NCBI GenBank assembly: GCA_038046625.1
Contig: JBBSVV010000039.1
Coordinates: forward strand, 1 to 18,859
Source: an archaeon
Lineage (GTDB): Archaea > Iainarchaeota > Iainarchaeia > Iainarchaeales > Iainarchaeaceae
Direction: 5' to 3'
Length of the DNA stretch: 18,859 bases
Shown here: positions 1 to 18,859 of the stretch, in pieces
Layout of the letters: each line of letters begins with the position of its first letter
Position numbering within the stretch: the stretch's first letter is position 1
Position numbers and translations under genes: made by a program
Notes under the pieces: model-generated
The model's input: the letters and a program-made list of their open reading frames with translations, nothing else
Databases searched by the model: none
What the model was told of the DNA's origin: nothing

Positions 1-875
1 AGGTAATAGCCGTAATAGGTGCGGCCGGATTCATTGGAAAGGCCATTTCAAGGGAGCTTGGAAAGAGCCACGAAGTCATAGGCACTTCCCTGCATAACCG
101 TGAAGGGTATTTCCATTGCGACATCACGAAAAAAAGCAGCGTAAAGGATTTCATTTCAGGCCACAGGCCGGATGTTGTCATTCACCTTGCTGCTCTCACA
201 GATGTGGATTTGTGCGAGCGCGACAAGGCGAACGCAAAAAAAATTCATGTTGATGGCACCAGGAACCTGGTTGACGCGTGCAAAAGCCTTTCCCCAAGGT
301 TCATTTATTTTTCAACGGACTTTGTCTTCGACGGCAGGAAAGGAAATTACTCCGAGGCCGATGCCACAAACCCCATAAACAATTACGGCAAAACCAAGCT
401 GGAGGGAGAAAAAATTGCAGAGGCTCTTTCAGGGCATTTGATAGTGAGGGCCTCAACGCCCTACAGCTTCGGCTCGGGCTCAAAAAAATTTCTCGGCATA
501 CTATTGGAAAAACTTTCGAGGGGTGAAAAGGCCGGTGCTTTTGCGGACTTCATAAGGTCGCCGACCCTGATTGAGAACCTCGCCGAAAACGTCGGGGCGC
601 TTGTTTCAAACGGCCATTCAGGCGTATTGCATGTCACAGGCTCCTCGCAGTTATCCATGTATGATGCCGCGCTGCAGGTTGCGGATGTGTTCGGGTTCGA
701 CCCTTCACTCGTGCAGAAAACCACCAGCAGTTCCGTTTCCCTCGATGCCCCACGGCCCCTTGATACTGGCATGAATGTTTCGCTCGCGCGGAAACTCGGC
801 CTAAACATCATCAGTTTCAGGGAAGGCCTGTTGAAGGTAAAGAAACAGGCTCAGGGTTATATCGAAAGACATTAA
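1..875 (+). CDS. rmlD: dTDP-4-dehydrorhamnose reductase family SDR (5'-truncated by window edge)
   Basis: The frame is open from base 3 (VIAVIGAAGFIGK, Rossmann GxxGxxG) and continues into the 204..875 ORF. RmlD-like motifs: HLAALTDVDLCE, STDFVFDG, catalytic YGKTK, RSPT and C-terminal APRP. Confidence 0.9.
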   Translation, partial: VIAVIGAAGFIGKAISRELGKSHEVIGTSLHNREGYFHCDITKKSSVKDFISGHRPDVVIHLAALTDVDLCERDKANAKKIHVDGTRNLVDACKSLSPRFIYFSTDFVFDGRKGNYSEADATNPINNYGKTKLEGEKIAEALSGHLIVRASTPYSFGSGSKKFLGILLEKLSRGEKAGAFADFIRSPTLIENLAENVGALVSNGHSGVLHVTGSSQLSMYDAALQVADVFGFDPSLVQKTTSSSVSLDAPRPLDTGMNVSLARKLGLNIISFREGLLKVKKQAQGYIERH

Positions 876-907
876 TTTTGAAACTTTTTCGAATGTCTTT
901 CGATAGC

Positions 908-1049
908 TATAGCAAACCAATAAAGTAATTCGGTGAATTTTCATGGTTCCTTGTACCCACAGGGTACGAGGCCCCGCAGAGCCCTGCTCTGCTAGGGTGC
1001 TATCTAGCAGACCACCATAAATGCCGAAAAACTTTCGTGGTCTGCTATA
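908..1049. mobile_element. TA-bounded MITE-like palindromic element, full copy 1 (core orientation A)
   Basis: Ends TATAGCAAACCA (908-919) and TGGTCTGCTATA (1038-1049) are inverted at 11/12. Arms match 14586-14726 at 39/41 and 37/39. The core at 949-1009 holds three hairpins. The repeat is directly seen; mobility is inferred. Confidence 0.75.
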
Positions 1050-1091
1050 TCAAAGGACAAATTTTGTATCCATATTTTTGTCCTTTGATAT
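1047..1091. repeat. Perfect 15-bp inverted repeat with 15-nt spacer (mini-MITE or bidirectional terminator)
   Basis: ATATCAAAGGACAAA (1047-1061) is the exact reverse complement of TTTGTCCTTTGATAT (1077-1091). It lies between convergent rmlD and rmlC. Confidence 0.85.
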
Positions 1092-1582
1092 TAAATTTCT
1101 TCAGGCTCGGAATCCCAGTCAAAGCCTATTTCAGCGTCATCATGGGGGATTCTCTCCTCATCGGGATCTTTCGGGTTGTACTCCTCATTCATTGCATAGA
1201 GCATTGTGACCGGCTCTTTCCCAAGGGCCTTGTATCCGTGCGCAACCTTTTTCGGGATTATTATCAGCTTGGGGTTTTTCGATGAATCGAGCTTGAATGC
1301 GGCTTTTTTTTTGAATCCCGGAGAGTCCTCGCGCAGATCATACAATCCAACCAGAGCCACCCCGGAAAGGAGAAACCAGATGTCCTGCTGCCTGTTGTGC
1401 CAGTGGAATGCCTTTATGACTCCGGGTTTTGTGAGTGAAACCGAAACCTGGTTTATGTTGTTCGCAACCCAGCTTTTCCTCAGCACCTCCAGAAAATACC
1501 CCCTTTTATCCGCGTGCTTCACGAGTTCGATTATTTTGACACCAGGAAAACCGTGGAGTTCTTTTTCAATCATAAAAACCAT
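1091..1582 (-). CDS. rmlC: dTDP-4-dehydrorhamnose 3,5-epimerase family cupin
   Basis: Motifs DKRGYFLE, GVIKAFHWH, DLREDSP, IPKKVAHGY and C-terminal IGFDW. The start could instead be the ATG at 1573. Confidence 0.88.
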   Translation of the reverse strand: MVFMIEKELHGFPGVKIIELVKHADKRGYFLEVLRKSWVANNINQVSVSLTKPGVIKAFHWHNRQQDIWFLLSGVALVGLYDLREDSPGFKKKAAFKLDSSKNPKLIIIPKKVAHGYKALGKEPVTMLYAMNEEYNPKDPDEERIPHDDAEIGFDWDSEPEEI

Positions 1583-1602
1583 CTTGGCCGATAAACCTTA
1601 AA

Positions 1603-1646
1603 TATGGCAAACCCCGAAAGTTTTTAGGCTTTTCCGCGCAGCCATA
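1603..1646 (-). repeat. Solo, degenerate right arm of the MITE-like family
   Basis: 1603-1633 matches the reverse complement of 1019-1049 at 26/31. It is bounded by TATGGC...GCCATA. Confidence 0.75.
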
Positions 1647-1654
1647 CTCATTTT

Positions 1655-3187
1655 TCATCCGCCTTCATCCCTCACGTAAATGCTCACTTCATTGTTCGAA
1701 AATATTTCCATGAATCCAATTTTTTGCCGTTGCACTGAATCCCCGAATATTTTTTCCCCCTTCGCATTCACCCACACATAATCGGCGCCATATTTTTCTG
1801 CAATCGAGAGTTCTCCCCCGAAGAAAGCGTTCACATCCTCCGCAGTTTCTTTCCTCTCCGATGTGAGATAAGCGTGTGCAAGCACGGGCTTGTGGTGTGT
1901 CTTCCAGCTTATTATTGCGCCCATCCTCTGGTCCGACATTACAATGCCCTTCGGCTGTTCCGCGAGGAAATCCAGGGCCCCTTTTTCTGCCGGGCTGATA
2001 AAAGAGAGTGCATTGTTGTTGGTCCATTGGCTCCTCTCCGAAAGCACGAACGGCCCGGAAAGGACGCAGGCAAGCACCAGGGCTGCGAACAAATATTTCG
2101 GGATTTTTTGCCGCATTGAAATGAGCCAGTGCACTGCAAAAACAGCCGTGATTATGTAGAAGAATATGAGGTATTCGGCCCCGAACCCTATCCTAGTCAG
2201 GGCAAAAGCGCCGAGCAGCCACGCGATGAGCAGCCAAGCAACGCGCTTTTCCCCGGGAATTCTAGTGAGGCCGATGAGCCCGAGGATGAGGACCACGCCA
2301 AACCCTATAAAGTAGAACAGCAGCGGCTCCTGTTTTGCAATGAAAAAGTAAATCTGCTGGTGCGCGGAAATGACCTTGTCTTCCGAAGACCAGGCCGAGT
2401 ATGCAAGTGCGGGGGCAAGAAAAACAAAAAAGTTGGCCGCAATCACCATGGTCTGCCTGGAAATTTTTTTCATGCTCAGTGTCTCGATGAGCTGCATCAA
2501 TGCAACGGTAACCGCGAAAAATATTGCGGTCACCGGGTGGATGAAGAATATAACAAGTTCAAGCGCCCCGGCAACGAGTAGCGGCTTCAAATCATTTTTT
2601 TTGAGGTACTCGAGCACGAGCACGAAACCCAGGAGCGCAAGGCCCAATGCCCAGTACCTGTGCGGCACGAACATGTTCCCTATGAGGCTGTAGCCATACC
2701 AAAAGGTCAGGTCGCTGCTCTTTATCCTCGCAATTGCGGGGAAAACGTTTCCGAGCAACGCCACCAGCCAGCCGAGGCCGCCCGCAAGTGAAATGAATCC
2801 GTAAGCCAAAAACCTTTCCCTGAATGTTTTGAATACCAAACCCAAAAAAATCCAGAGTGCCGTCAGGAAAAAAATTATGCCGAAAAACCTGGACAGGACA
2901 AAAACCGTTTCAATGGGAATGCCTGTTTTTGCGGCCTGCCCCATTGCGAGGAACAGGGGCAGAAAATATCTGCCCAGCTGTGGTTCGGATGTCTGCTTGT
3001 TTTCCAGTAAAATGCCGTGCTGCGCGTCCTCGACAAAGGATGCATAAACATAATTGTCTTCCGGGAACTCGAAGCCGAGGTAACCGTCTCCGGCCGCATA
3101 ACCCCCAAGAGTAGGCGCGAGCTGTATCGCCGACATCACGACTGCGAATGTCAGCACCATGGCAAGTTCTTTCGAGCGCTTTTCCAT
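1655..3187 (-). CDS. Polytopic membrane protein, probable GT-C fold glycosyltransferase
   Basis: 510 aa with many hydrophobic segments, an acidic motif in the first loop (FPEDNYVY) and a soluble C-terminal domain (GIVMSDQRMG...YGADYVWV). The ATG is preceded by a G-rich RBS-like tract. Confidence 0.65.
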   Translation of the reverse strand: MEKRSKELAMVLTFAVVMSAIQLAPTLGGYAAGDGYLGFEFPEDNYVYASFVEDAQHGILLENKQTSEPQLGRYFLPLFLAMGQAAKTGIPIETVFVLSRFFGIIFFLTALWIFLGLVFKTFRERFLAYGFISLAGGLGWLVALLGNVFPAIARIKSSDLTFWYGYSLIGNMFVPHRYWALGLALLGFVLVLEYLKKNDLKPLLVAGALELVIFFIHPVTAIFFAVTVALMQLIETLSMKKISRQTMVIAANFFVFLAPALAYSAWSSEDKVISAHQQIYFFIAKQEPLLFYFIGFGVVLILGLIGLTRIPGEKRVAWLLIAWLLGAFALTRIGFGAEYLIFFYIITAVFAVHWLISMRQKIPKYLFAALVLACVLSGPFVLSERSQWTNNNALSFISPAEKGALDFLAEQPKGIVMSDQRMGAIISWKTHHKPVLAHAYLTSERKETAEDVNAFFGGELSIAEKYGADYVWVNAKGEKIFGDSVQRQKIGFMEIFSNNEVSIYVRDEGG

Positions 3188-3214
3188 TCAACCATTACCC
3201 CCCTTTTAGGATTA

Positions 3215-4192
3215 TTATGCCCCGGTGTTTTCTTGGAACCATTCAATGGTCTGCCTCAAGCCATTGTCAAGGCTTGTCTTCGGCCTGAAACCCAGGATGC
3301 GTTCGGCCTTTGAAGTGTCGCAGATGCGCTTCATCCTGCCTGGGTTTTCCGAGAGGTCTTTCTCTATCTTAACCTCTTTTCCCATGAGCTCCGCAATTTT
3401 TTCCGCGAGGTCAATTATTTTTATGCCCTTGTCAGTGCCGAAGTTTATCGGGTCGGGCTTCGGGTATTTCTCGCCAAGCATTGTGAAGCCCTCCGCCACG
3501 TCCTTGACAAACACAAAACTTCTTTCCTGCTGCCCGGTGCCGAATATCCTTACCCTGCTTTCTGTCATTATCTGGTTTATGATTGACGGTATGACGTGCG
3601 ATTTCATTGGATTGAAAAAATCCCTGGGGCCATAAGTGTTGAACGGCCTCGCAATCCCGATTTTCATTCCGAATTCCTCGGAAAAGGCTTTTGCCATGAG
3701 CTCGTCAAACCTCTTGCTCCACGCGTAACCGAACTTTGCCTTGTCGGGTTCGCCGACAAAACCCATTTCCTCTTTAAGGATGCCGTCAACGCTGTCTGAA
3801 TACACGAAAGCCGAGCTTGAGATAACCGTTCTCTCAACGTGCGAGTTCCTTATGGCATCAAGCGTGTTTGATGTTATGAGGCCGTTGTCCCTTATCATTG
3901 TGGCCGGGTGCTCTATGTTATAGTTCACGCCCCCGACGATTGCGGCAAGGTGGAATACCGCGTCCATGCCCTCAACGGCCTTTCGGCAGTCCACAACGTT
4001 CCTGAGGTCGCATGGCATAACCTCAATATTGGATGCCGACTCTGCAGGGTTAACCCTCGCCTTTTTGCCGCTCCTTTCTTTCGAAGTTACCCTGATACTT
4101 GCGCCATGGTCCGTGAGCAGGTCTGCCAGATGTGAACCTATGAAACCCGTGCCACCGGTAACCAAAACATTTTTGCCTTTCCAGAACGGCAT
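3215..4192 (-). CDS. NAD-dependent epimerase/reductase, GDP-fucose synthase / GDP-mannose 3,5-epimerase-like
   Basis: Motifs GGTGFIGSHL, HLAAIVGG, YAWSK, RPFNTYGP, SHVIP and GTGQQERSFVFVKD. Confidence 0.85.
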   Translation of the reverse strand: MPFWKGKNVLVTGGTGFIGSHLADLLTDHGASIRVTSKERSGKKARVNPAESASNIEVMPCDLRNVVDCRKAVEGMDAVFHLAAIVGGVNYNIEHPATMIRDNGLITSNTLDAIRNSHVERTVISSSAFVYSDSVDGILKEEMGFVGEPDKAKFGYAWSKRFDELMAKAFSEEFGMKIGIARPFNTYGPRDFFNPMKSHVIPSIINQIMTESRVRIFGTGQQERSFVFVKDVAEGFTMLGEKYPKPDPINFGTDKGIKIIDLAEKIAELMGKEVKIEKDLSENPGRMKRICDTSKAERILGFRPKTSLDNGLRQTIEWFQENTGA

Positions 4193-4220
4193 TATACCAC
4201 AAGTAATCCTTCCTATCGGG

Positions 4221-4230
4221 TTAATAAAAA
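4221..4230 (-). promoter_or_regulatory. Putative archaeal TATA box for the 3215..4192 gene
   Basis: Minus-strand TTATTAA starts 35 nt upstream of ATG 4192. The same heptamer sits at similar spacing before two other genes. Confidence 0.5.
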
Positions 4231-4246
4231 TTTAACTTCATTCGAG

Positions 4247-4303
4247 TTTTGGACCAATAAGCTGATCGGCCGCGGCACGGCTCCGCGTTATCGTGGCCCA
4301 AAA
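4247..4303. repeat. Imperfect hairpin, probable internally deleted relative of the MITE-like family
   Basis: Stem TTTTGGACCA / TGGCCCAAAA (9/10). It carries the left-arm motif ACCAATAA...TCGG, the right-arm motif TCGTGGCC and an inner CGCGG/CCGCG stem. Confidence 0.55.
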
Positions 4304-4308
4304 TCCTA

Positions 4309-4318
4309 TTATTAAAAA
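4309..4318 (+). promoter_or_regulatory. Putative archaeal TATA box for the 4343 gene
   Basis: TTATTAAAAA starts 34 nt upstream of ATG 4343; no obvious RBS precedes the ATG. Confidence 0.5.
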
Positions 4319-4342
4319 GTTGCTTCCAATTTTTTTGTTGTC

Positions 4343-5491
4343 ATGGTGAACAAGGTTACCCTGCTTGGCACGTTGCCGCCGATAAAGGGGATAAGTGATT
4401 ACTGCATAGAGCAGACCCGCACGCTCGGCGAGAGAATAAACGTTGTTTTCCTCAACTTCAAGGCCATTTACCCGGAATTCCTGTACCCCGGGAGCACTAA
4501 AGAGGATGACCCGTCTTTCAGGGTGCCGGAATCACCGAGAATAGAAGTGAGGCCCACTCTGGCCTGGTATAACCCTTTCAGCTGGATCGGCGCAGGGCTC
4601 GGGGCAGAGGGCGAGGTTTTCCACTTCCACTGGTGGACTTACTTCCTTTTCCCGGTTGTTTTCACCGTTGCCTTGATTGCGAAACTCCGGGGAAAAAAAA
4701 TCGTGTGCACCGTGCACAATGTCATTGCGCACGAGTCAAACTTTTTGGACCGCCTCCTCACGGGAACAATGTTCCTGCTGCCTGACAGGTTCATTGTCCA
4801 CACCGATAAAAACATGGAGCAGCTCCGCGATGCCTACTCAGTAAGGCCATCCGGCATCAGCGTGATACCGCAGGGCATTTATTCTTTTTACCGCGACAAA
4901 AAGGTTTCCAAGAATGATGCGAGAAAAAAACTCGGCATTCCCGGCAAAGCCAGGGCCGTGCTTTACTTTGGCAACATCAGGAAGTACAAGGGTGTCGGGG
5001 ATCTCATCGGGGCTTTCAGGATTGCACAGAAAGAAATCCCCTCATTGTTCCTCGTCATAGCGGGGCGCCCGTGGAGCGGGGAACTCCGCACTTCAATCAG
5101 CGATTCAGTGAGGCCGGTCAGGGAAAAAAAAGTTGTCCTTGATTACATCGCGTCTTCCGACATAAAGTATTATTTCGAGGCCGCAGACGTGGTGGTTTTG
5201 CCTTACAGGCATTTTTCCGCGCAAAGCGCCCTCGGCAACATTGCCCTCGCATTTGAAAAGCCTCTCATAGTTTCCGATGCCGGCGGGCTCCCGGAACTGG
5301 TGCTCGACAAAAACATGGTTTTTGAGGCAGGCAACCCTGCTGCCCTTGCCCGCAAAATCAGCCTCGTTTTTTCGAAAAAAGGGCTCCTGCAGAGCATGGC
5401 GCGCGACTCGAAAAAACTGAAGCAAAAATATTCGTGGGAAAGCATTTCCGCGGAAACCGTCCGGCTGTACGACGGCCTTTTCCGCCCATGA
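4343..5491 (+). CDS. Glycosyltransferase family 4 (GT-B)
   Basis: 382 aa. Motifs GISDY, TVHNVIAHE, YFGNIRKYKG, ADVVVLPY, KPLIVSDAGGLPE and YSWE. Confidence 0.9.
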   Translation: MVNKVTLLGTLPPIKGISDYCIEQTRTLGERINVVFLNFKAIYPEFLYPGSTKEDDPSFRVPESPRIEVRPTLAWYNPFSWIGAGLGAEGEVFHFHWWTYFLFPVVFTVALIAKLRGKKIVCTVHNVIAHESNFLDRLLTGTMFLLPDRFIVHTDKNMEQLRDAYSVRPSGISVIPQGIYSFYRDKKVSKNDARKKLGIPGKARAVLYFGNIRKYKGVGDLIGAFRIAQKEIPSLFLVIAGRPWSGELRTSISDSVRPVREKKVVLDYIASSDIKYYFEAADVVVLPYRHFSAQSALGNIALAFEKPLIVSDAGGLPELVLDKNMVFEAGNPAALARKISLVFSKKGLLQSMARDSKKLKQKYSWESISAETVRLYDGLFRP

Positions 5492-5495
5492 ATGC

Positions 5496-5503
5496 TTTTT
5501 TTT
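5496..5503 (+). terminator. Possible oligo-T terminator
   Basis: A T8 run begins 5 nt after the GT4 stop codon and is followed by a new TATA-like box. Confidence 0.35.
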
Positions 5504-5541
5504 CGTACCAAATTCTTTATAAGCCCGGGTAAAACCAATTA

Positions 5542-5548
5542 TTATTAA
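5542..5548 (+). promoter_or_regulatory. Putative archaeal TATA box for the 5574 gene
   Basis: TTATTAA starts 32 nt upstream of ATG 5574. Confidence 0.45.
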
Positions 5549-5573
5549 CTAAACTCCCTTTCCCGTGTTTGTC

Positions 5574-7034
5574 ATGGATTTTTTGTCTGAAAAAAATTTT
5601 ACAGCCATGGCCCTGATTGTTTTTTCCCTCATTTTCCTGAGTTTCTTTCCGCACATTTACGCTTCAATCGACGAGCATACTTTCCTGAAAAATGCGCTCC
5701 TCCTCCGCAACGGTTCAATCAGCGAGCCGAACCCGGAACTCGCATGCAGGTCAAACATCTTTACCGCACAGGGTTATGTCGGAGGCCAGTTCATCGGAAA
5801 ATCCGTTTTCCTCCTGCCGTTCACATTTTTCGGCCTGGATGCGGTAATGTTCTCCGGCCTCGTCATTCACCTCGTTAATGCAATTCTTTTCTTTCTCATA
5901 CTAAAAAAACTGGGCATTGATCCGCGCTTTACGGTTCTTTACACATTTTTCCCCGTAATGCTGTGGGAAACAAGAACCCTTTACAGCGAATTGCTGGTTC
6001 TGACGGCATTCCTTGCCGCATTCTACTTTTACATTAAAGACTCAAAGTTTTCAGCGACAGCTTCCGGATTTTTGTTTGGCCTGGCGGCTGTTGTCCGGTA
6101 TGATGCCGTGGTTGGCTTTGCCGCGTTTGCCGCGCCGCTGCTGTTCCGGGACAGGAAAAAACTCTTTGAGATGCTTGCCGGTTTCATTCCGGTGGTTCTT
6201 CTGATACTCATGTTCAACACCCTCGCATATTCGGGGCCGCTGAACGCGGGCTACGGTTCCGGCGTCTCGCTTGTCTCCTCCCTTGCAAACATCAACCCAT
6301 TGACTTTGCTCGCTTACCTTGGCATACTGCTGATACTAATTCCGGGCCTGCTTGCATCGCCCTTGCTTTCATCGAAAAAAAATTATTTGCCGCAGTTCAT
6401 CCTCATTTCCATTGCATACCTATGGCTCACCTCAAGGTTCACGGACATAACCGCCTTCCCCCTTACAATTGACACTTTCCTGACCGCCAGGCTGAGGTAC
6501 CTGGTTCCGCTCATAGGGCTTCTCCTGATTCCTTACTCTGAATTGCTGGATAAAATTTTCGGAATGCTTAAGGCCGGGAAAAATATTTTGTTCGCGGCAT
6601 CGCTTTTGGTTTTGGCAATCGGCGCGGTTTTCGCCTCCTCTGTCCACGCGAATTTCACGGATTCGCGCTTCGAAACTTTCAGCCAGATCAGGTCCAATGT
6701 CCCGCAGGATGCGCTTCTCATCGGAAGCTCCGATAACTGCATTTACTCGATTGCCGCTAATCTTGAAAGGACAAGGTACATGAACATTGTCCCTGAATAT
6801 GATTTGGGCCCGCATGGCAAGGGCATAAGCCTGAATGAAAGGTTCTCCGGCGACACGTATTTTATGGACCTGGCCTATTCAAACCGCTCCTCGAACACAA
6901 GCCAAAGGCAGAACAACACAAATGCCGAGAGGAAGTTCATGCAGGATTTCATTGAAAACAATTCAGGCAACCTCGAACTCGTGTTTGAAACCGACCAGCC
7001 GAATAGCCTGAGCATTTACAAGTGGAAAGGGTGA
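5574..7034 (+). CDS. GT-C fold membrane glycosyltransferase (ArnT/PMT-like, GT39/83)
   Basis: DE motif after TM1 (YASIDEH), LYSE, GLAAVVRY, RYLVP, multiple TM segments and a soluble C-terminus. ATG 5574 is preferred over GTG 5565 on TATA spacing. Confidence 0.75.
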   Translation: MDFLSEKNFTAMALIVFSLIFLSFFPHIYASIDEHTFLKNALLLRNGSISEPNPELACRSNIFTAQGYVGGQFIGKSVFLLPFTFFGLDAVMFSGLVIHLVNAILFFLILKKLGIDPRFTVLYTFFPVMLWETRTLYSELLVLTAFLAAFYFYIKDSKFSATASGFLFGLAAVVRYDAVVGFAAFAAPLLFRDRKKLFEMLAGFIPVVLLILMFNTLAYSGPLNAGYGSGVSLVSSLANINPLTLLAYLGILLILIPGLLASPLLSSKKNYLPQFILISIAYLWLTSRFTDITAFPLTIDTFLTARLRYLVPLIGLLLIPYSELLDKIFGMLKAGKNILFAASLLVLAIGAVFASSVHANFTDSRFETFSQIRSNVPQDALLIGSSDNCIYSIAANLERTRYMNIVPEYDLGPHGKGISLNERFSGDTYFMDLAYSNRSSNTSQRQNNTNAERKFMQDFIENNSGNLELVFETDQPNSLSIYKWKG

Positions 7035-7037
7035 CTA

Positions 7038-7163
7038 TTTGGCAGGATTTACAATCGTGAGGAATGCCCACGGAGCCTTATTTTTTAAGGTGTTGGCAAC
7101 ATCCTCTCACGTGGGCAAAAGCCGAAGGCAATTTTTTTGGCAAAGCTTTTGTGGCCTGCAAAA
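7038..7163. repeat. Multi-hairpin intergenic element, diverged relative of the MITE-like family
   Basis: 7142-7159 matches the copy-2 right arm at 16/18. An 8-bp stem TGCCCACG/CGTGGGCA (7065-7072/7110-7117) encloses CCTTA/TAAGG and TGTTG/CAACA hairpins. Ends are TTTGGCAGG/CCTGCAAAA. Confidence 0.55.
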
Positions 7164-7214
7164 AGGGTTTTGATGAGATAAAACATATGCCCGCGATAAA
7201 TAGGCGGTGGAAAC

Positions 7215-8789
7215 ATGTTTGAGGAAATCCGGAAAGAAAACAAAGTGACCATCCTCGCATTGGCATTGCTTGTGTTGATAAGTTTTGGGCTCTCTCTTTC
7301 CCTGCTTTCCTGGGGCCTCCCATATTACCTGCATCCCGACGAACAATTCGTTGTGACTAATACCATGCGCATGGCGGAAAACAGGTTATTGCCGACCAAC
7401 TCAATATACCCGCCTTTAATGTTTTACACCCACCTGTCGCTGTATGGCTCGTATTTTCTCATGCTAAAAGCTACGGGGGAAGTTTCAAGCCTATCGGATT
7501 TTGCGGATTTTTACCATTCAAACCAAAGCAATTTTTTCATGATTTCCAGGGGCCTGACTATCCTTGCATCCATGCTGATTTTAATCCTGGTTTTTGTATT
7601 TGCCAGGAAAATTTCAAATAATTCCGCCGCCGGGCTTTTAGCCTCTTTTTTTCTGGTCATTTCACCGGGTTTTCTGGCGTCCTCAACACTGATAAAAGCG
7701 GATATTTTTATTGCGCTGTTCCTCCTGCTTGCGATGTATTGGCTCATCGCCAAAAACCGGCAAAACGGAAAAATCGCCGAAACTGAAAAAAAAGGAAAAC
7801 CGCATTGGATCGCCCTTTTTACCGCGCTCGCATTCAGCCTTAATTATTACGGCGTTTTCATAGTCCCGATAATTGTTGTGGGTTTTTTATTGCTGAAACA
7901 GCGGGACATGGTAGCGCCATACCTGAAAAAAGTCGTCATTTTCGGCGTTGCACTTAATTTCCTTTTTTTACTGAACTTCACACAGGGCATAAAAGACATT
8001 TTGCATGTGCTCAGCATGGTTAAGGACAGAACAGCTTCCCTGTGCATCCCATTCTGGGAGGGAAACCAATTTTTCGGATTGTGGGATGGCTTCGGCGCCC
8101 CATTGTTATTCGCGGCCGCCGGGCTTGTTTACTTTTGGAGACAAAAGAGGACTGATTACAGGCTATTGGGGGTTTCAAGCCTTTTGTTTTTATTTTTCCT
8201 GTTTTTGATATCGGCCAGGGAACCAAGGTACTCAATTGCGGTTTATCCCCTTGTTGCAATTCTGGCCGGCGCGGCAATCATGAAACTTTACGGATACCTG
8301 GCGGGCAAATACAAGTCAAACTATTTCAAAGCGGCCTTTGTTCTTGTTCTGGGCCTGTCATTAATTCCGCCGATCCAAGCGACATACGGCCTTGTAACAA
8401 ACCAGGACACGCGCTTTGTGTCGGCCGACTGGATAAAAGAAAATATTCCGATGGACCGCGTTATAGCGACTGAAACGTATGGCCCCACGCTGGACAGCTA
8501 TTTTTACTACACCTGGGGTTACACCGGGAAAGACCCTTATGACGGCGAGGGCTATTACCTGATAAAAGATTATTATATAACCGACAAAAATTTTTACGCT
8601 GCGGATTACATCATATTATCCAGCCTTGCATCGGATAAAACCAAGTATTTTTGCGACAAAAAACCGCTGGAAACATACGGCGCCATCAGGAGCTGCCCGC
8701 TAATCGGCTCCTGGCGCGCGGAACCCGCAAATTTCTGGTTCCATAACCCCGTTATTAATATGTATTCAAATTGCTTAAAGCCCGCGTGA
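7215..8789 (+). CDS. GT-C fold membrane glycosyltransferase (ArnT/PMT-like, GT39/83)
   Basis: WGLP...HPDE first-loop motif, YPPL, SR, KADI, EPRY and DTRFVSADWIKENIP; multiple TM segments; GGTGG before the ATG. Confidence 0.8.
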   Translation: MFEEIRKENKVTILALALLVLISFGLSLSLLSWGLPYYLHPDEQFVVTNTMRMAENRLLPTNSIYPPLMFYTHLSLYGSYFLMLKATGEVSSLSDFADFYHSNQSNFFMISRGLTILASMLILILVFVFARKISNNSAAGLLASFFLVISPGFLASSTLIKADIFIALFLLLAMYWLIAKNRQNGKIAETEKKGKPHWIALFTALAFSLNYYGVFIVPIIVVGFLLLKQRDMVAPYLKKVVIFGVALNFLFLLNFTQGIKDILHVLSMVKDRTASLCIPFWEGNQFFGLWDGFGAPLLFAAAGLVYFWRQKRTDYRLLGVSSLLFLFFLFLISAREPRYSIAVYPLVAILAGAAIMKLYGYLAGKYKSNYFKAAFVLVLGLSLIPPIQATYGLVTNQDTRFVSADWIKENIPMDRVIATETYGPTLDSYFYYTWGYTGKDPYDGEGYYLIKDYYITDKNFYAADYIILSSLASDKTKYFCDKKPLETYGAIRSCPLIGSWRAEPANFWFHNPVINMYSNCLKPA

Positions 8790-8795
8790 ATGCTT

Positions 8796-8833
8796 TATAG
8801 CTGGCCAATAAAATAATTCTGTGATATTTTTGG
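8796..8833 (+). repeat. Solo, degenerate left arm of the MITE-like family
   Basis: TATAGCTGGCCAATAAAATAATTCTGTGATATTT matches 908-941 at 27/34. It is enclosed by an 8-bp inverted repeat AATGCTTT/AAAGCATT (8789-8796/8835-8842). Confidence 0.75.
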
Positions 8834-8872
8834 CAAAGCATTGCCGTTGGCGGGAGGCCGGAGAAAGCGGTT

Positions 8873-10105
8873 TTATTGTTTGCCGATAATTTTTACTTCC
8901 GGCAAAGGGACAATAAATTTTCCGCCGTTTTTTATGAAATCGCCCTCTTTTTTCAGTATGGTTTCGGTATACCCGCCATAAGCCAAAAGAAGCGCATAAT
9001 CCGGATTTTCTTTTCTGAACCTGTCCACAGGTATGATTGGTATGTGTGTGCCCGGGGTAAACTTATTCTGCCTCAGGGGGGAATCGTCCACAATATAATC
9101 CAAAATCCCCGTGCCTATTTTGCAGTAGTTCAATAATGTGTTGCCGCGGGCGGGGGCGCCATACCCCACAATTGTTTTGTCGCCCGATTTTAATGAGTGC
9201 AAAAGTTTTGTCAATTCCTTTCTGCGCTTCTCCACCTTGTTTCCGAATTCCATGTATGTTTCAAGCTTGTCAAGCCCGTGTTTCTTTTCCTCTTTCAGGA
9301 GTTCCTGCACTGCCGGTTTTACCTTTCTTTTTGAATTGCCGCAGTAAACGCGTATGGATCCGCCGTGCGTTTTGATGCGCTTTGCGTCAAACACCCGCAG
9401 GCCATATTTTCCCAGATACGGTATCAGCGGGTGCAGTGAGTAATAACATAAATGCTCGTGGTACACATCGTCATACTGGAGATTTTCAACGGTATCAAGG
9501 AGGTAGTGGTTCTCGAAAATAAAAACCCCGTCTTCCTTCAGAAGAACCTTTATCCCCCGGAGTATTTCATCAAGGTCATCAATGTGGGCGAACACATTGT
9601 TGGCGACAACCATGTCCGCTTTCCCGAGCTTTTCAACAATGCCGCTGGCCACCTTTTCAGTGAAAAAATCATTTATGGTTTCCAGGCCCATTTCATTCGC
9701 CATTTTGGCTATGTTTTCCGCGGGTTCAACTCCTATTGCCTTTACCCCGCACAGTTCTTTGAGGGGTTTAAGCATCATGCCGATGTTGGAACCGATTTCT
9801 ACCAATAGTGACTTGCCATTCAAACCGAATTCTGCCGTTATTTCTTTTGCATAACCCGTGAAGTGCGGGGAAAGAACGGAATGCGGGGCATAAAAGTATT
9901 GTGAAAAAAGCTTGTCCTTTGGGACAACATCAAGGACCTGGACCAGGGCGCAGTTTTTGCAGAAAAAAACACCGAGCGGAAAATAATCCTCCTTTTCCGC
10001 CAATTGTTCCGAAGTAAGGAATTTTCCGGCCAATGGCTGTGGCCCCAATTCCAAAAATTTATGCAAATCCCTGCTCTTGCAGAGCCTGCAACTGCTATTT
10101 TTCAT
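8873..10105 (-). CDS. SAM-dependent NDP-hexose C-methyltransferase (TylCIII/TcaB9/NovU-like)
   Basis: N-terminal zinc motif CRLC...CKNC, LGPQPLA, EIGSNIG SAM motif, NVFAHI, YHEHLCYY, THGGSIR and YGAPARGNTLL. ATG 10105 overlaps the end of the upstream gene. Confidence 0.9.
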   Translation of the reverse strand: MKNSSCRLCKSRDLHKFLELGPQPLAGKFLTSEQLAEKEDYFPLGVFFCKNCALVQVLDVVPKDKLFSQYFYAPHSVLSPHFTGYAKEITAEFGLNGKSLLVEIGSNIGMMLKPLKELCGVKAIGVEPAENIAKMANEMGLETINDFFTEKVASGIVEKLGKADMVVANNVFAHIDDLDEILRGIKVLLKEDGVFIFENHYLLDTVENLQYDDVYHEHLCYYSLHPLIPYLGKYGLRVFDAKRIKTHGGSIRVYCGNSKRKVKPAVQELLKEEKKHGLDKLETYMEFGNKVEKRRKELTKLLHSLKSGDKTIVGYGAPARGNTLLNYCKIGTGILDYIVDDSPLRQNKFTPGTHIPIIPVDRFRKENPDYALLLAYGGYTETILKKEGDFIKNGGKFIVPLPEVKIIGKQ

Positions 10106-11030
10106 AGTAATCAACTGTCCTCGATATGCCTTCCTGAATTGATGTTGTGGGCTCAAAGTTCAGCCTTTTCTTGATTTTTTCAATTCCGGCAACCATGTGC
10201 TTCATTTCCCCGGGACGTTCTTTCTCGTGGTTTATTTTTGGTTTCTTTTTCATTTTGTCCGAGATAGTGCCAATCAACTGGCTTATTGAAACGCTTTGGC
10301 CCATTGCAACATTGAATGTTTCCCCGAACACGGAAGTGTCATCGGTATTTGCCGCGAGGAGGTTTGCCTGCACGACATCCGCGACAAAAGTGAACGGCCT
10401 TGTGCTGCTGCCGTCTCCATAAACGGTTATCGGTTCTCCGGCCCTGATTTTTTGGATAAACGTGTTGACAACCCCGACATCAACCGCCTGTCTCGGGCCA
10501 TAAACACTCGCATAACGGAAAATGATTGCCGGGAGATTATACTGGCGATGCCACAGCCTGCAGTATTCCTCACATGAATACTTGCTTACCCCATAAGGGT
10601 TGGTCGGTACAATTTCGGACTCTTCCGTGCTCCGGGCCTCCTTAGGGCTGCCGTATACCGCAATGGTTGAAGCCATGATAAATCTCCTGGCGCTGTTATC
10701 GGACGCCCATTTCAGCATATTTAATGTGCCGTATATGTTGGTCAGGAGGTCTTCGCGCGGCTGCTTTACGCTGAAGACCATCTTTTTTCCGGCGTGGTGG
10801 AAAACACAGCCAATGCCTTTGAAGGCCATTTTTTCCAGGTCTCCGGTCTTTGTGATATCCCCTTCAAAAAAATCAAAATTAGGGTTGCCAATAAATTGTG
10901 ACATATTGCCCCTGTTGCCGGTTGACAGGTTATCAAGCCCCATTACTTTCCAGCCCTCGGATAAAAGCCTCTCGCATAAATGAGACCCTATAAAACCCGC
11001 ACAACCGGTTACCAGCCCAATTTTACCCAT
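10095..11030 (-). CDS. NAD-dependent epimerase/dehydratase family SDR
   Basis: Motifs GCAGFIGSHL, DNLSTG, ASTIAVYG, YGVSK, RYASVYGPRQ and GDGSSTRPFTFVAD. The probable start is ATG 11030. Confidence 0.88.
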   Translation of the reverse strand: MGKIGLVTGCAGFIGSHLCERLLSEGWKVMGLDNLSTGNRGNMSQFIGNPNFDFFEGDITKTGDLEKMAFKGIGCVFHHAGKKMVFSVKQPREDLLTNIYGTLNMLKWASDNSARRFIMASTIAVYGSPKEARSTEESEIVPTNPYGVSKYSCEEYCRLWHRQYNLPAIIFRYASVYGPRQAVDVGVVNTFIQKIRAGEPITVYGDGSSTRPFTFVADVVQANLLAANTDDTSVFGETFNVAMGQSVSISQLIGTISDKMKKKPKINHEKERPGEMKHMVAGIEKIKKRLNFEPTTSIQEGISRTVDYYEK

Positions 11031-11052
11031 AAACACCAACTAAAAAAATCCG

Positions 11053-12192
11053 TTACCGAAAATCTTTTAATACCCTTAAAACCCCGGCATTACAGGCATC
11101 CCGCGTATATTTGGTTTTAATTATGGCGGCGTTATTTTTAGCCTTGAGCCTGAATGGGCCGAAATTTTTTAATATCCTTTCGAGATTTTCCGCCAGCTCT
11201 TTCCAGTTGTCCGACCGGAACCCGACGTCGTTCTCGGAAAAGAATTTTTGGAAGCTCTCATTATTTGCGGGGGTTTTCACGACTACGGGGAGCCCACAGG
11301 CCATGTATTCAAGTATTTTAACCGGGACCGCAAATAATTCGAACCCTTCCCAGAAATCAATTCCAATGTCTGCAGCGGACAGGTAACGGTACACTTCCGA
11401 GTGGGGTATGTTTTTAACCAACAGGAAATTGTCTTTTAGCCCGAGCTGTTTCACAGTGGATTCAATCTCGGCAATGCGGCCCATGGCAACCGGTGTTTCA
11501 TCAGAAGCGATTACAAACAGGATGGTTGCCGAAGTTTTTTTTATTATGGCGGCGCTTTCCCGGAGAAAATCCAGGTAACGCTCATCCCCGAGGCCGCCCA
11601 AATAAATGAGCACCCTCGAACCCGCGCTTATCCCTAATTTTTTGCGGATTTTTTTCCCTTCGGCCAAATCCGCATGGACAAGTTTTGTATCCACCCCGTT
11701 CGGCGCGACCAAAATTTTGCTTTCAGGGATGGAATACCTTTTTTCAAGCCACTTGCCTATGGTTGAATCCAGCACCAGTATTTTGTCGGAATTCCTGTGG
11801 ACAAGCATTTCCATTAAGGCATAAATCCGGAACTTCACAATTTTTTTATTCGAGATGCCGAGCTTTGCGGCAGTCTGTGTAAAAATGTCCTTTGAATCCA
11901 GGACAAACCTTTTTCTTTTCAGTTTGCATGCGAGCATTGCAAAAAAAGTGTGGGTTATGGGCGGGGAAGTACCGATTAAAACATCAAAATCTGTTTTCCA
12001 AAGAAGTTCAACCAAACCAAGGATTCCGCGGTACCTCACAATGTTTTCCCGTGATTCCAGGCCCCCGCGTGCCGGGGAAAATATTTTCACATCATTGCCT
12101 TTTGAGGTGAAATAACCGGAAAAACTGTTTACCCGCACAATTGCCGCCCCTTTTTCGGGATTTGCATAAGGGCTCACAAGGCATATCTTCAT
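11053..12192 (-). CDS. Glycosyltransferase family 4
   Basis: Motifs MKICLVSPY, TSPP, PNGVD and PVKILEYMACGLPVV. ATGA overlap with the upstream gene and a GGGGTGA RBS-like motif. Confidence 0.88.
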   Translation of the reverse strand: MKICLVSPYANPEKGAAIVRVNSFSGYFTSKGNDVKIFSPARGGLESRENIVRYRGILGLVELLWKTDFDVLIGTSPPITHTFFAMLACKLKRKRFVLDSKDIFTQTAAKLGISNKKIVKFRIYALMEMLVHRNSDKILVLDSTIGKWLEKRYSIPESKILVAPNGVDTKLVHADLAEGKKIRKKLGISAGSRVLIYLGGLGDERYLDFLRESAAIIKKTSATILFVIASDETPVAMGRIAEIESTVKQLGLKDNFLLVKNIPHSEVYRYLSAADIGIDFWEGFELFAVPVKILEYMACGLPVVVKTPANNESFQKFFSENDVGFRSDNWKELAENLERILKNFGPFRLKAKNNAAIIKTKYTRDACNAGVLRVLKDFR

Positions 12193-13556
12193 TTTGCGTC
12201 ACCCCTGAATATTGTTAAAATAAATTTCGGGTTGGACAAAATTTTTTTTGCAAGGTCAATGTCTGCATCATCAAAAAACAGCATTTCCCTTATGGAATAT
12301 TTTTCGCCGGAAATCTTTTTCATAAACCTGTTTTTCAGGGCTACATCAAGCAGGGGCGTAAAAACATTGTTCATCGCCATCCCCATGAGCCCGAAATAAA
12401 AAGTAAAAACCGAGCCAAGCACAAGCGTTGATGCAAGCATGGCGGCGGAAATTATTGTGAGGCTCTTCTGGGCCTTAAGGTTAAAGAACAGGGGTTTCAT
12501 GGGCATATTCAGTATGAACAGGACTACTGTGAGAAGCAGCACCCTGAAAACACCGGCATATTCGGCAAAATCCGGCCCCAGGACAAGATCCAAAACCGCT
12601 TCGGAAAAAACGAATGCAATGAAGAGAAAAGGGATTGAAATGAAAAGAATGTATTTCGTTGCCCTGAAAATCAGTTTTCTCGAGTCATCAAAACGCCCGA
12701 ACTTGTTTACAAGCGGGTAAAATATTGTTTCAAGGGGCTCGAAAACCCTCATAATCAGGACCTGCACTTTGAGCAATGCGCCGTAAACCCCTACTGCATT
12801 TACCCCCAAAAAGAATTCCACTATCCACGGGGAAATGTTCGACTCAATGCTCCTCAGCTGTGAAAATGCCGCGACCCACTTGCCGTGCTTTTTTGCCATC
12901 TCAAAAAACGCCATCGGGTTTGAACGCATCCTTGCAATTTCCAGGATTTCCTTCGGGACAAAAAGCAGGAAAATCAGTATTGTTAAAATGCCGCTTACGA
13001 TAAAGGCCTGCAGAATGCCTTCGACAGTTCCTGAAATAAATGCGACAAATATGTAAACAAGAACAAGCTTTGAGAGCGCATCGACAAAAAGGAAGGACGC
13101 ATACTTCCCGAAATCGGCCACAATGTGGAAAGCGCTCGTGACAATTGTCTTGGCTCCGCTGATAAACACCAAAACAGCGATGAACCGGATTACTGGCGCC
13201 ACGTCTTTCCCAAAATAAGCGGAAACATGGCCGGAGAAAAAAAACATTATGCCTGCGAGAATGCCGGTTGAAAAGAATATGAAAATAATGTACCCTAAAA
13301 ACAATCCCGATGCCTGTTCTTTGTTGTTTTGCTGCAGTTCCTTTGAGACATCCGAAACAATGGCCTTCCCGAAACCAAGTTCCATGAAAAAGGTTGCGAC
13401 GGAAAGGGCTGACAGCGCCAGCGTCAACAGGCCAAAGCCGTACGTTCCGAGGGCATTCAGCATCACAAGGAACGCCGCAAAATTAATGACGGAAGTTAAT
13501 ATGTTATTCCCGGAAATTATTGCCGCGTATTTGAATATTTCCCGCAAAGCGTTCAT
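12189..13556 (-). CDS. Oligosaccharide flippase (Wzx / polysaccharide biosynthesis family)
   Basis: 455 aa with about 12 hydrophobic segments and Wzx-type motifs LGTYGFGL, LG...VGVY, FYP and FGLMGMA; glycosylation context. Confidence 0.85.
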   Translation of the reverse strand: MNALREIFKYAAIISGNNILTSVINFAAFLVMLNALGTYGFGLLTLALSALSVATFFMELGFGKAIVSDVSKELQQNNKEQASGLFLGYIIFIFFSTGILAGIMFFFSGHVSAYFGKDVAPVIRFIAVLVFISGAKTIVTSAFHIVADFGKYASFLFVDALSKLVLVYIFVAFISGTVEGILQAFIVSGILTILIFLLFVPKEILEIARMRSNPMAFFEMAKKHGKWVAAFSQLRSIESNISPWIVEFFLGVNAVGVYGALLKVQVLIMRVFEPLETIFYPLVNKFGRFDDSRKLIFRATKYILFISIPFLFIAFVFSEAVLDLVLGPDFAEYAGVFRVLLLTVVLFILNMPMKPLFFNLKAQKSLTIISAAMLASTLVLGSVFTFYFGLMGMAMNNVFTPLLDVALKNRFMKKISGEKYSIREMLFFDDADIDLAKKILSNPKFILTIFRGDAK

Positions 13557-13591
13557 GTGAAAAGCCCTAGTTTGGCCTTAGAAAAGTTTTT

Positions 13592-14560
13592 CTAAGCCAG
13601 CTGTTTTCTCCAATACTCCAGGAGGTCTTTCAATGTTCTGTCAAGCGGTATCTCCGGCTTCCAGCCTGTCCGCCTGCCGAACTTGCTGTAGTCGCCCAAA
13701 AGCTCTTTCACATCAGACGGCCTCAGCCTTTCCGGGTCCTCTTTTACCGAAATTTTTTTGTCGGTCAAAGAGAGAAGCTTGTCCAGTATGGACTGCATCG
13801 TGTGGGTTTGCCCCGAACAGATGTTGTAGGCTTCTCCGGGCTCGCATTTTTCGATTGCCATCCAGTATGCCCTGACCATGTCCCTGACATCCGTAAAATC
13901 CCTTTTCGATGTGAGCGAGCCCACCATAAGCACCGGCTCCTGGGTGCCTTTCTCAATTTCCGCTATCTGCTTTGCCCAGTTCGAGGTGACAAAAACTTCC
14001 CCCCTTCTCGGTCCTGTGTGGTTGAAGGCGCGCGTCCTTATTATTTTGAGGCCATAACTCTGGTGGTACTGGTACCCAAGGAGGTCCATTGATGCCTTGC
14101 TCACTCCATAAGGGCTGAGCGGCCTGAAAGGATTCGATTCCGTTATCGGTATCTCGTTTGCATACACTGCCCCATAAGTTTCACTGCTCGATGCAATCTG
14201 CACCTTTATGCCGGGGTTAACCTCCCTGATTGCCTCGAAGATGTTCAACGCACCCATGATGTTTGTTTCAAGGGTTTCCCTTGGTGACTTCCACGATTCC
14301 GGCACGAAGGACTGGGCCGCCAGATGAAAAATATAATCGGGGTCGATTTCCTTTATTGTCCGCTTGACCACAAAATAATCCGTGATATCGCACTTCACGA
14401 GATTCAGCTTGTCTTTGACATGCATGATGTTTGAGAGGTCCGTGCTCTTCCCCCTGTAAGTCCCGTGGATCTCTCCAAGCTTGTTGTTCAAAATGTACTC
14501 TGTGAGGTGTGAACCCGCAAATCCCGTTATTCCCGTAATTAGAATTTTTGCTTTTTTCAT
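13592..14560 (-). CDS. GDP-mannose 4,6-dehydratase / GDP-4-keto-6-deoxymannose reductase (Gmd/Rmd) family
   Basis: Motifs ITGITGFAGSHL, HLAAQSFV, SSSETYG, SPYGVSK, FNHTGPRRG.FV and RDFTDVRD; AGGAGG upstream. Gmd versus Rmd cannot be resolved by eye. Confidence 0.85.
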   Translation of the reverse strand: MKKAKILITGITGFAGSHLTEYILNNKLGEIHGTYRGKSTDLSNIMHVKDKLNLVKCDITDYFVVKRTIKEIDPDYIFHLAAQSFVPESWKSPRETLETNIMGALNIFEAIREVNPGIKVQIASSSETYGAVYANEIPITESNPFRPLSPYGVSKASMDLLGYQYHQSYGLKIIRTRAFNHTGPRRGEVFVTSNWAKQIAEIEKGTQEPVLMVGSLTSKRDFTDVRDMVRAYWMAIEKCEPGEAYNICSGQTHTMQSILDKLLSLTDKKISVKEDPERLRPSDVKELLGDYSKFGRRTGWKPEIPLDRTLKDLLEYWRKQLA

Positions 14561-14585
14561 TTTTTACCCGCCCCTCCTTAGACTA

Positions 14586-14726
14586 TATGGCAAACCAATA
14601 AAGTAATTCGGTGGATTTTCATGGTTTGCTATCTAGCACCTTGCAGAGCAAAGCTCTGCGAGGCCTCGTACCCTGCGGGTACAAGGAACCGCCATAAATG
14701 CCGAAAAACTTTCGTGGCCTGCTATA
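14586..14726. mobile_element. TA-bounded MITE-like palindromic element, full copy 2 (core orientation B, inverted)
   Basis: Ends TATGGCAAACCA / TGGCCTGCTATA. Arms are direct repeats of copy 1, while core 14627-14686 aligns to the reverse complement of 949-1009. Confidence 0.75.
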
Positions 14727-14746
14727 GAACTAACTGATAATGTATT

Positions 14747-15787
14747 TTAATTCTTGGTTATCCTGCCGGCCAGTGCCAGGAATCTCCGCCTGAATTTCCC
14801 GAAACCAAACTTTTCAGCCACCAAAGCAGCGGTGCTTGGCCTGCTTTTTTTGCCAAGAACCCTGTCAATTGCCCTGCACCATTCCCCGGCTTCCATTGAA
14901 GACACTTTCTCCAGGCCATCAGCCCTTATTTCCCTGACCACGCCTACATTGCCTGAAATGACTGGTGTGTTGCATGACAATGCTTCTATTGGTACAAAGC
15001 CAAAACCTTCGAACCTGGACGGGAAAACAACGAAATCCGCGGCCGCGTAATACAATGCCAGCTCCTCCCTTTCACTGACAGAAACCCCCGTGATGTTTTT
15101 CACCGTGCTCTTGGTTTTCGGGAAAGTGATTGAAACAAAACCTATTTCAGGCCTCAGCCCGGCGATTTTTTCCAGCAGGTCAAAGCCTTTCTGGTATTCA
15201 GGCCGGCCCACGAACAAGCCGATTGTTTTTCCAGCGCCCAGGCCGAGCTTTTCCCTCGCCTTTTTCATGTCCCTCGCCTTAAAAGTTTTCGTGTCCACGG
15301 GATTGGGTATAACCTCCGAACCGATACCGTAATATTTTTTGTTCAGTTCTTTTGTGAGCCCCGAATTCGAGACCACCAAAGAGGCGTTCCCGGCACTCAT
15401 TTTTTCAAAGAAAGCGTAAATGAACCTTGTCCGGCAAAACTCCAGCCCCGGCTTTATTGCGTTGTCCGCGAGGCCAGCGAATGTGCCGTGTGAAATATTT
15501 ATTATCGGGCAGCCTGTGTCCCGCTCCTTTAGGTTCCATCCGAACATGCCGTTGGTGATAACCAGGTCCGGCTTCAGTGTGCCGATATTTTCCTTTAAAA
15601 ATGAGCAAACCGCCCCGGCTTTCATCGGTTCCTTCAGCGGAGAGAACCATTCAAGCGCGCCCGGCTTCACCATGCCATAACTTATTATTTTCATTCCGGG
15701 AAAAACTTTTTTCAGGTACCCGTTGTATGTCTCCACTCCGGCCTTCACTTTTGGGTCAGTGGTAGCGGTCAAAAGGATAACATTCAT
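14747..15787 (-). CDS. Glycosyltransferase family 4
   Basis: Motifs AGVET, SHGT, PNPVD, FVGRPEYQKG and PSRFEGFGFVPIEA (EX7E). ATG 15787 forms an ATGA overlap. Confidence 0.9.
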   Translation of the reverse strand: MNVILLTATTDPKVKAGVETYNGYLKKVFPGMKIISYGMVKPGALEWFSPLKEPMKAGAVCSFLKENIGTLKPDLVITNGMFGWNLKERDTGCPIINISHGTFAGLADNAIKPGLEFCRTRFIYAFFEKMSAGNASLVVSNSGLTKELNKKYYGIGSEVIPNPVDTKTFKARDMKKAREKLGLGAGKTIGLFVGRPEYQKGFDLLEKIAGLRPEIGFVSITFPKTKSTVKNITGVSVSEREELALYYAAADFVVFPSRFEGFGFVPIEALSCNTPVISGNVGVVREIRADGLEKVSSMEAGEWCRAIDRVLGKKSRPSTAALVAEKFGFGKFRRRFLALAGRITKN

Positions 15788-18805: not shown

Positions 18806-18859
18806 TCAGGTCACCTTTACCGCTTTCACAATCATCTGTTCCTGAAGGCCTTTCGGCAG
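18806..18859 (-). CDS. 3' end of an upstream gene, product unknown (truncated by window edge)
   Basis: Open frame LPKGLQEQMIVKAVKVT* whose TGA (18806-18808) directly abuts the GT2 start codon. Confidence 0.55.
   Translation of the reverse strand: MPKGLQEQMIVKAVKVT

Follow-up and report, generated by a model that had tools for sequence, protein, structure and literature searches.

The stretch of DNA analysed here, referred to as the window, is an 18,859-nucleotide contig (JBBSVV010000039.1, positions 1 to 18,859; assembly GCA_038046625.1) from an archaeon of the family Iainarchaeaceae. It is contig C39 of the source genome, which we call G000 and whose assembly amounts to 986 kb at 84.6% completeness, and its context is a cluster of sugar-nucleotide and glycosyltransferase genes. 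Two copies of a short repeat, here named LR, lie at 908-1049 (copy 1) and 14586-14726 (copy 2). LR is a MITE, a small transposable element with inverted repeats, and both copies carry a smaller passenger, a pair of hairpins that we call the A+B module. In the initial annotation the copies had been described as ~141-bp elements with arms in the same orientation around a core of three hairpins, A, B and C, flipped as a whole between GGT and ACC.

Much of that description stood up to closer analysis. The positions were confirmed, the arms of the two copies agree in the same orientation (39 of 41 bases on the left, 37 of 39 on the right), the hairpin order is A-B-C in copy 1 and C-B-A in copy 2, and A+B is truly reversed between them (945-996 against 14639-14690; 52 nt, 90% complementary). 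Both copies also fold far better than chance would allow, with DNA z-scores of -5.1 to -7.6 and none of 200 shuffles as good. The part that did not stand is the flip of the whole core. Such an inversion predicts a GA loop in hairpin C with GGTC on its left, yet on the plus strand hairpin C reads TGCTA-TC-TAGCA in both copies alike; because it keeps its TC loop in both, we reject a whole-core flip for the copies of the window. When the core of copy 1 was inverted in silico, the product differed from copy 2 at 13 positions, three of them the diagnostic bases in the loop and its left neighbour, while moving A+B alone across C left 11 differences, one of which lies at the right junction.

In its basic form LR is 89 bp long and consists of two 43-bp hairpin units, L and R, joined by TC, with terminal inverted repeats of 9 bp (TAGCARACC) and no coding capacity. 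It is also a multi-copy element, and the possibility that only these two copies exist, which would have left a one-off event to explain, can be dismissed: BLAST with the copies and their parts returned 52 loci in G000. Many G000 contigs (C5, C11, C15, C18, C26, C27, C38, C54) end inside LR copies, so that copy numbers are lower bounds. By the same means, 13 of the family's 22 other genomes proved to contain similar sequence, as did 1 of 18 genomes outside the family. Solo units of the LR type are also present between TA duplications, and altogether 36 TA-bounded hairpin units of several kinds were found, against one in each of two shuffles. The bases of the inner and outer repeats are concordant within a unit in 53 of 55 left and 52 of 55 right units of the dimers.

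The arrangement of the centre was surveyed at 60 junctions from G000 (19 rows) and from loci fetched from its relatives, the latter picked by similarity, so that the figures are not whole-genome counts. Plain L-TC-R junctions without A+B make up 38 of the 60. Eleven belong to class II, with A+B right of the centre (L-TC-BA-R), and eight to class I, with A+B left of it (seven L-AB-TC-R and one with a CC loop); the remainder are a degenerate junction with a GC loop, a trimer, and a class II copy whose type was misread from the opposite strand. The reversed loop, L-GA-R, occurs at none of the 60. A lone GA loop among the 82 rows of the arm tree discussed below appears to be row L019 as reversed by the script, since the same row printed from left to right shows TC. 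One further observation concerns two near-identical, inverted class II copies on contig C1 of G000 (9034-13916), which bound a 4.5-kb segment that is reversed in the related genome G001 (L242, contig C36); a 1.3-kb gene beside the segment is absent from G001. Here a real inversion of the chromosome has its breakpoints at LR repeats.

The A+B module is a head-to-head doublet of imperfect hairpins, 45-52 bp long, that reads CCTTG..CGAGG and then CCTCG..CAAGG. Across 67 distinct halves, positions 1-3 and 8-9 of the stem are paired in 65-67 and positions 6-10 vary in matched pairs, while at position 4 a Watson-Crick pair is lacking in 66 (58 of them T-G); each strand of the doublet shows one T-G hairpin. 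In the 54 doublets listed, the stems run flush to the module ends, and the junction with the host is T^T in 47 of 53. In G000 the DNA around 23 of 24 sites is multi-copy, which holds for 19% of 600 random TT sites outside open reading frames, and emptied sites fold at a mean of -11.7 versus -6.0 kcal/mol. Unrelated hairpin repeats, one of them an end hairpin of the IS200/605 type, are among the hosts. Inside LR the module adjoins the T/A variant in all 5 class I and all 13 class II cases, and it also occupies other positions within the central loop (L107, L151, L234, L239). Removing it from class I, class II or mid-loop copies restores an ordinary element of ~89 bp. With a strict pattern, A+B turns up in 7 of the 22 genomes of the family and in none of the class's 192 others; a looser pattern finds it in 11 of the 22. 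Viral contigs gave no match.

Several side observations concern such nesting. At L242:5450-5700 an A+B module is itself interrupted by ~130 bp that include another A-type hairpin, a fourth level of nesting. Hosts of another family that bear A+B (L078 and L079, compared with contig C46 of G000) are absent from G000 and seem to be flanked by long target duplications in G001. Some metagenome copies of LR (L155, L159, L165, L169, and also L145) have a second, AT-rich palindromic insert of ~45-50 bp in the right unit, and L165 has both this insert and A+B.

Table. Features of the window, with those of the two LR copies and of the flanking genes; L166 is a metagenome contig that carries an IS630 element.
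Feature	Position	Strand	Remarks
RmlD-like dTDP-dehydrorhamnose reductase gene	3..875	+	flanking, context only
D hairpin	860..905	+	left half of the D-GC-E element that hosts copy 1; gives stop codon 873-875 of the rmlD-like gene
LR MITE copy 1	908..1049	+	TA duplication 908-909, 1048-1049; class I, A+B left of centre; placed in the central TA of D-E
L unit, copy 1	910..1002	+	43-bp hairpin that has terminal inverted repeats of its own; A+B divides it at 948/998
Outer 24 bases of L unit, including TA	copy 1, in 910..1002	+	identical to right end of the IS630 in L166
A+B module, copy 1	949..997	+	49-bp inverted doublet of imperfect hairpins; no target duplication
"Hairpin C", copy 1	998..1009	+	L and R inner inverted repeats meeting at TC spacer 1003-1004; part of the MITE, not of A+B
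R unit, copy 1	1005..1047	+	43-bp hairpin; outer end 19/24 like left end of the IS630 in L166
E hairpin	1048..1090	+	right half of D-E
RmlC-like epimerase gene	1091..1582	-	flanking, context only
Degenerate R-type half	1602..1633	-	an extra open reading frame of G001 starts inside this half
Empty TA target	5540..5541	.	class II LR element here in G001, TA duplicated
Degenerate solo L-type half	8796..8840	+	G001 has the same half
GDP-mannose dehydratase-like gene	13592..14560	-	flanking, context only
LR MITE copy 2	14586..14726	+	TA duplication; class II, A+B right of centre on the opposite strand
Central junction, copy 2	14627..14638	+	TC loop oriented as in copy 1
A+B module, copy 2	14639..14686	-	48 bp; orthologous element in G001 lacks A+B
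GT4 glycosyltransferase gene	14747..15802	-	flanking, context only

Six orthologous sites in G000 and G001 differ by the presence of A+B, without any target duplication. Three of them have LR as the host: copy 2 of the window against its G001 counterpart, contig C24 of G001 against C16, which shows the exact empty site GGTT^TGCTA, and contigs C14/C42 of G001 against C7. The other three (L083 against C5, L085 against C50, L081 against C3) lie in other host repeats. In four of the six pairs the empty site is an exact T^T. A filled element is also seen to have moved whole, as a class II LR sits in G001 at the site that is empty at position 5540 of the window.

That LR belongs to the IS630 sphere had been proposed in the initial annotation, and the proposal is borne out. 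TA is duplicated at at least five pairs of filled and empty sites, namely window position 5540, the copy 2 site against genome G003, and L040, L041 and L023 against G000. A pattern scan of metagenomes gave 29 loci, four of which are the right end of one insertion sequence (IS) at different sites. An IS630 with matching ends was found on the metagenome contig L166: a whole element with a transposase of 339 amino acids (NF033545, 219.9 bits, the cut-off being 100). The right end of this element is identical to the L arm at 24 of 24 bases, and its left end agrees with the R arm at 19 of 24. The former match had been preselected by the search pattern, which leaves the left end and the transposase as the independent evidence. 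Because TA is duplicated at filled and empty pairs and the ends are common to an IS630, LR is a TA-duplicating non-autonomous element of the IS630 kind. A transposase like that of L166 presumably acted in the source lineage.

The ends of the IS630 elements of G001 and G019, of an IS5-like element of G001, and of the Y1 and IS110 loci match neither LR, D-E (the host of copy 1) nor A+B. Viral contigs gave 40 matches to a short arm pattern, none of which continued into the LR element on inspection, and no relative of the L166 transposase. Nor did a described family turn up for LR, as had been supposed: Rfam gave no matches at E<=1, and no description was found in the literature searched, most subscription papers lying outside that search. 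On L171 (528-1623) there is a split transposase of DDE-like type that stops ~50 bp short of an L-like arm; the arm is probably a solo unit beside another IS. An integron attC array was considered as well and rejected, with no integron integrase over the cut-off and TA duplications that point to a DDE enzyme.

Copy 1 is itself an insertion in a third element. D-E consists of two hairpins joined by GC, the same two-unit build as in LR, and the block D-LR-E, which has a TTA duplication on its two sides (857-859, 1091-1093), is missing as a whole from G001. At 857-1093 of the window, D-E lengthens the rmlD-like gene by five codons. Other copies of D-E also show a TAA/TTA duplication, and LR or a solo unit often sits in their central TA. 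Among the transposase loci examined, none matches D-E. Farther along, near window position 1627, G001 has an extra open reading frame (L022:16694-17968; 424 amino acids, of unknown kind) that starts inside the degenerate R-type half and is not in the window.

The explanation that we favour, with a probability of about 0.8, is that the two arrangements reflect nested insertion or loss of A+B at mirror-image sites and not an inversion of the core. Three non-coding mobile elements would then be nested, A+B in LR and, at copy 1, LR in D-E. A+B comes and goes in hairpin-forming repeats precisely at T^T and without duplication. LR has two mirror-image sites for it, GGTT^TGCTA on either strand, that flank its centre; filling the left site would give copy 1, and filling the right site would give copy 2 with A+B reversed. 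Elements filled in this way would then travel whole, moved in trans by an IS630 transposase that duplicates TA, and D-E is the TAA/TTA-duplicating two-hairpin host of copy 1. No host function would need to be assumed.

As for the enzyme that moves A+B, the lack of duplication, the hairpin hosts and the strand-asymmetric mismatch lead us to favour a single-strand HUH/Y1 nuclease of the kind that serves IS200/IS605 elements and repetitive extragenic palindromes (REPs), which may bind the mismatched hairpin; we would put this somewhat below even odds. Of 23 genomes of the family, 9 have Y1 genes, which are IS200-like or unassigned. The Y1 transposases at L053, L054, L055 and L061 are divergent and stand alone, and their ends comprise several hairpins; three of them score below the IS200 cut-off, and none of the four reaches that for the REP-associated tyrosine transposases (RAYTs).

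Besides the preselected right end of L166, several points weigh against this explanation and the enzymes that it invokes. The flanks of L166 have 29-30% GC and its neighbours are unlike G000, which makes its host another organism. At 84.6% completeness, G000 shows no IS630, either as a DDE_3 domain or by tblastn with seven transposases from relatives, and only one of 215 genomes of the class has a relative (31%), whose ends are different; the IS630 of G001 has other ends as well. Nor does G000 show a Y1 transposase with the Y1_Tnp profile or in the same tblastn search; none of seven Y1 proteins tested reaches the RAYT cut-off (NF047646), and the flanks of the fetched Y1 loci, from genomes that are incomplete, are without A+B. 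At the sites themselves, two of the six orthologous pairs (copy 2 and C7) also differ at the junction base beside A+B, a change that simple insertion leaves unexplained and gene conversion explains. Gain and loss of A+B are not separable from two genomes. Finally, copies within one class are not independent events. A tree of 82 arms with A+B removed speaks in favour of the explanation: the classes are scattered over it, and a single clade was rejected for class I (p-AU 0.003) and for class II (0.023). This support is weak, as the tree has 89 columns and one mis-oriented row and conversion breaks its assumptions.

Conversion leads to an alternative that we regard as rather unlikely when taken as the full account, in which A+B entered LR once or twice per side long ago and is now spread or lost by gene conversion or ectopic recombination, with no dedicated enzyme today. 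Copy 2 may in that case be an A+B-free resident that a class II donor has patched, or an empty donor may have patched its orthologue in G001. The left arm of copy 2 is indeed of one subfamily while its right unit has discordant inner and outer bases, against the concordance noted above for 52 of 55 right units; the junction-base changes fit as well, and the reversed segment on C1 indicates that LR repeats recombine or mark breakpoints. New positions in unrelated hosts are left unexplained by conversion, however, with at least four LR positions and several other host families sharing the T^T junction, and four orthologous pairs are exact, the junction being otherwise unchanged. The conversion account complements nested insertion and does not exclude it, and conversion probably contributes. 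A different enzyme, a recombinase of the IS110/IS1111 type or another duplication-free kind that moves A+B through a small circle, strikes us as improbable and is a weaker candidate than HUH/Y1. Insertion without target duplication and the targeting of palindromic repeats are IS110 traits, and one IS known from inside REPs is presumably of the IS110 family. Its insertion in REPs is reported in PMC8450116. IS110 genes were detected in 3 of the 23 genomes of the family, and a circle of A+B would be expected from its sequence to have two similar palindromic joints. Yet none of these genes is in G000 or G001, there is no A+B similarity beside them, G000 holds no circularly permuted A+B (one chance decamer aside), and element and target share no core dinucleotide.

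It is also necessary to ask whether the arrangement of copy 2 is real, or whether the core of LR can in fact be switched. Read support was judged from contigs of four runs in two studies, although the region is present in eight runs, and rare variants are beyond the reach of contigs; two of the four runs may be those from which the assembly came. The flanks and outer arms of both copies are covered in the four runs and both studies, and the core of copy 1 (944-1025) in three of the four and likewise in both studies, whereas the core of copy 2 is spanned by no listed contig and its link to the locus rests on the assembly. This, together with the G001 orthologue that lacks A+B, is what a chimera of a plain element with the core of another copy would produce. 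We consider such a chimera very improbable; the core of copy 2 differs in sequence from every other copy in the assembly, and class II arrangements are also seen elsewhere, at loci whose flanks are unique and in further genomes, which makes the conclusion independent of this locus. A contig in all four runs, at about one-fold depth, joins 14532 and 14604 on opposite strands; no second locus in G000 matches the joint, which perhaps stems from an unassembled paralogue with an LR insertion. Invertible segments are familiar from shufflons and the Hin and Fim switches, and at first sight the two LR copies, with the same arms around a reversed internal piece, resemble them. The initial annotation accordingly suggested that a recombinase, or template switching, inverts the whole GGT-ACC core, a reversible switch that we now find extremely unlikely. 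A and B are truly reversed, inversion of Correia elements is reported in part of PMC10969869, and the inner bases of the two arm subfamilies (T..G in one, C..A in the other) differ in the way expected after an old inversion. The inner base, however, tracks the outer base of the same unit and so reflects that unit's own hairpin; the loop is reversed at no junction surveyed, most junctions are plain, and copy 2 departs from the prediction at its diagnostic bases. Orthologous sites examined differ by presence and show no change of orientation, though no pair with A+B intact in both genomes was found, and the module also sits elsewhere in the central loop and in unrelated repeats. The contigs of the four runs show no opposite-strand joint at the core borders. 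No mixed orientation was seen, but contigs would not reveal one. No invertase was found, the sole tyrosine recombinase detected in G000 being XerA.

LR itself has good parallels in bacteria. It resembles RUP of the pneumococcus, ERIC/IRU and Correia/NEMIS in being shorter than 200 bp, non-coding, bounded by terminal inverted repeats, flanked by TA duplications, strongly folded, mostly intergenic and equipped with ends shared with an IS630. These IS630-linked MITEs (RUP, ERIC, Correia) match LR in kind as described in parts of PMC2229807, PMC3184786, PMC3049150 and PMC10969869; passages of PMC2229807 give both the ends that RUP has in common with an IS630 and a Correia form with an extra internal piece of 50 bp. 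The main-text passages of the MITE census PMC11602168 and of PMC13343696 hold no mention of Iainarchaeota, their supplements lying outside the search. LR differs from RUP, ERIC and Correia in its unrelated sequence, its archaeal host, its two hairpin units each with both inverted repeats, and its solo units. Unlike theirs, its internal piece, A+B, is an independent passenger of other repeats too.

For A+B the comparison is less straightforward. Non-autonomous derivatives of IS200/IS605 elements are known as the PATE type, and A+B shares with them the absence of target duplication (in the six orthologous pairs), precise loss, and mismatched hairpins; IS200-type Y1 genes occur in the source family, and one IS200-type end hairpin has A+B inside it. 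It differs in leaving no room for guide tetranucleotides, in having no fixed target tetranucleotide but only T^T, and in matching none of the Y1 ends fetched. With REP dimers, REPINs and BIMEs it shares the inverted doublet of imperfect palindromes of ~23 bp, a conserved stem mismatch, and stems that vary while the structure is kept. A bulge is required for the activity of TnpA-REP, and TnpA-REP and the TnpA of ISDra2 both make use of a strand-asymmetric mismatch, according to passages of PMC8266576. The closest parallel to the nesting of A+B that we have seen is in Anabaena, where GTAG-15 REP dimers are inserted in TATA-bounded palindromes (TATAGGA..TCCTATA) as described in part of PMC3733652. 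A+B departs from REPs and REPINs in that it has no GTAG/CGTC tag, no spacer between its halves, flush ends, a T^T instead of a CT junction, and hosts that are commonly empty. With no tag, and no RAYT among the seven Y1 proteins tested, A+B fails membership of the REP/REPIN group but works like a REP. According to a passage of a preprint (bioRxiv 10.1101/2022.05.22.493013), REPINs and RAYTs are absent from archaea, and a passage of PMC8266576 calls the spread of REP-like doublets still poorly understood.

It is conceivable, if doubtful, that A+B represents the REPIN's counterpart in archaea: a tag-less double hairpin of 45-50 bp that hitch-hikes on IS630 MITEs and owes its movement to a single-strand nuclease, the target being chosen not by sequence but by the shape of the DNA, namely the hairpins that other mobile elements form. 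LR itself is an ordinary, though undescribed, IS630-type MITE with a candidate transposase. There is a caution of more general use in the present case, in that a seemingly inverted core in a palindromic repeat can arise from two mirror-image insertion sites. For A+B there are exact alleles with and without the module, a fixed T^T junction and a number of unrelated hosts, which define both substrate and target for a test in vitro. If an HUH enzyme inserts it by hairpin shape, the module would represent a structure-targeted, duplication-free insertion system; and if the reading as an archaeal REPIN is true, A+B would be among the smallest mobile elements, a parasite of parasites.

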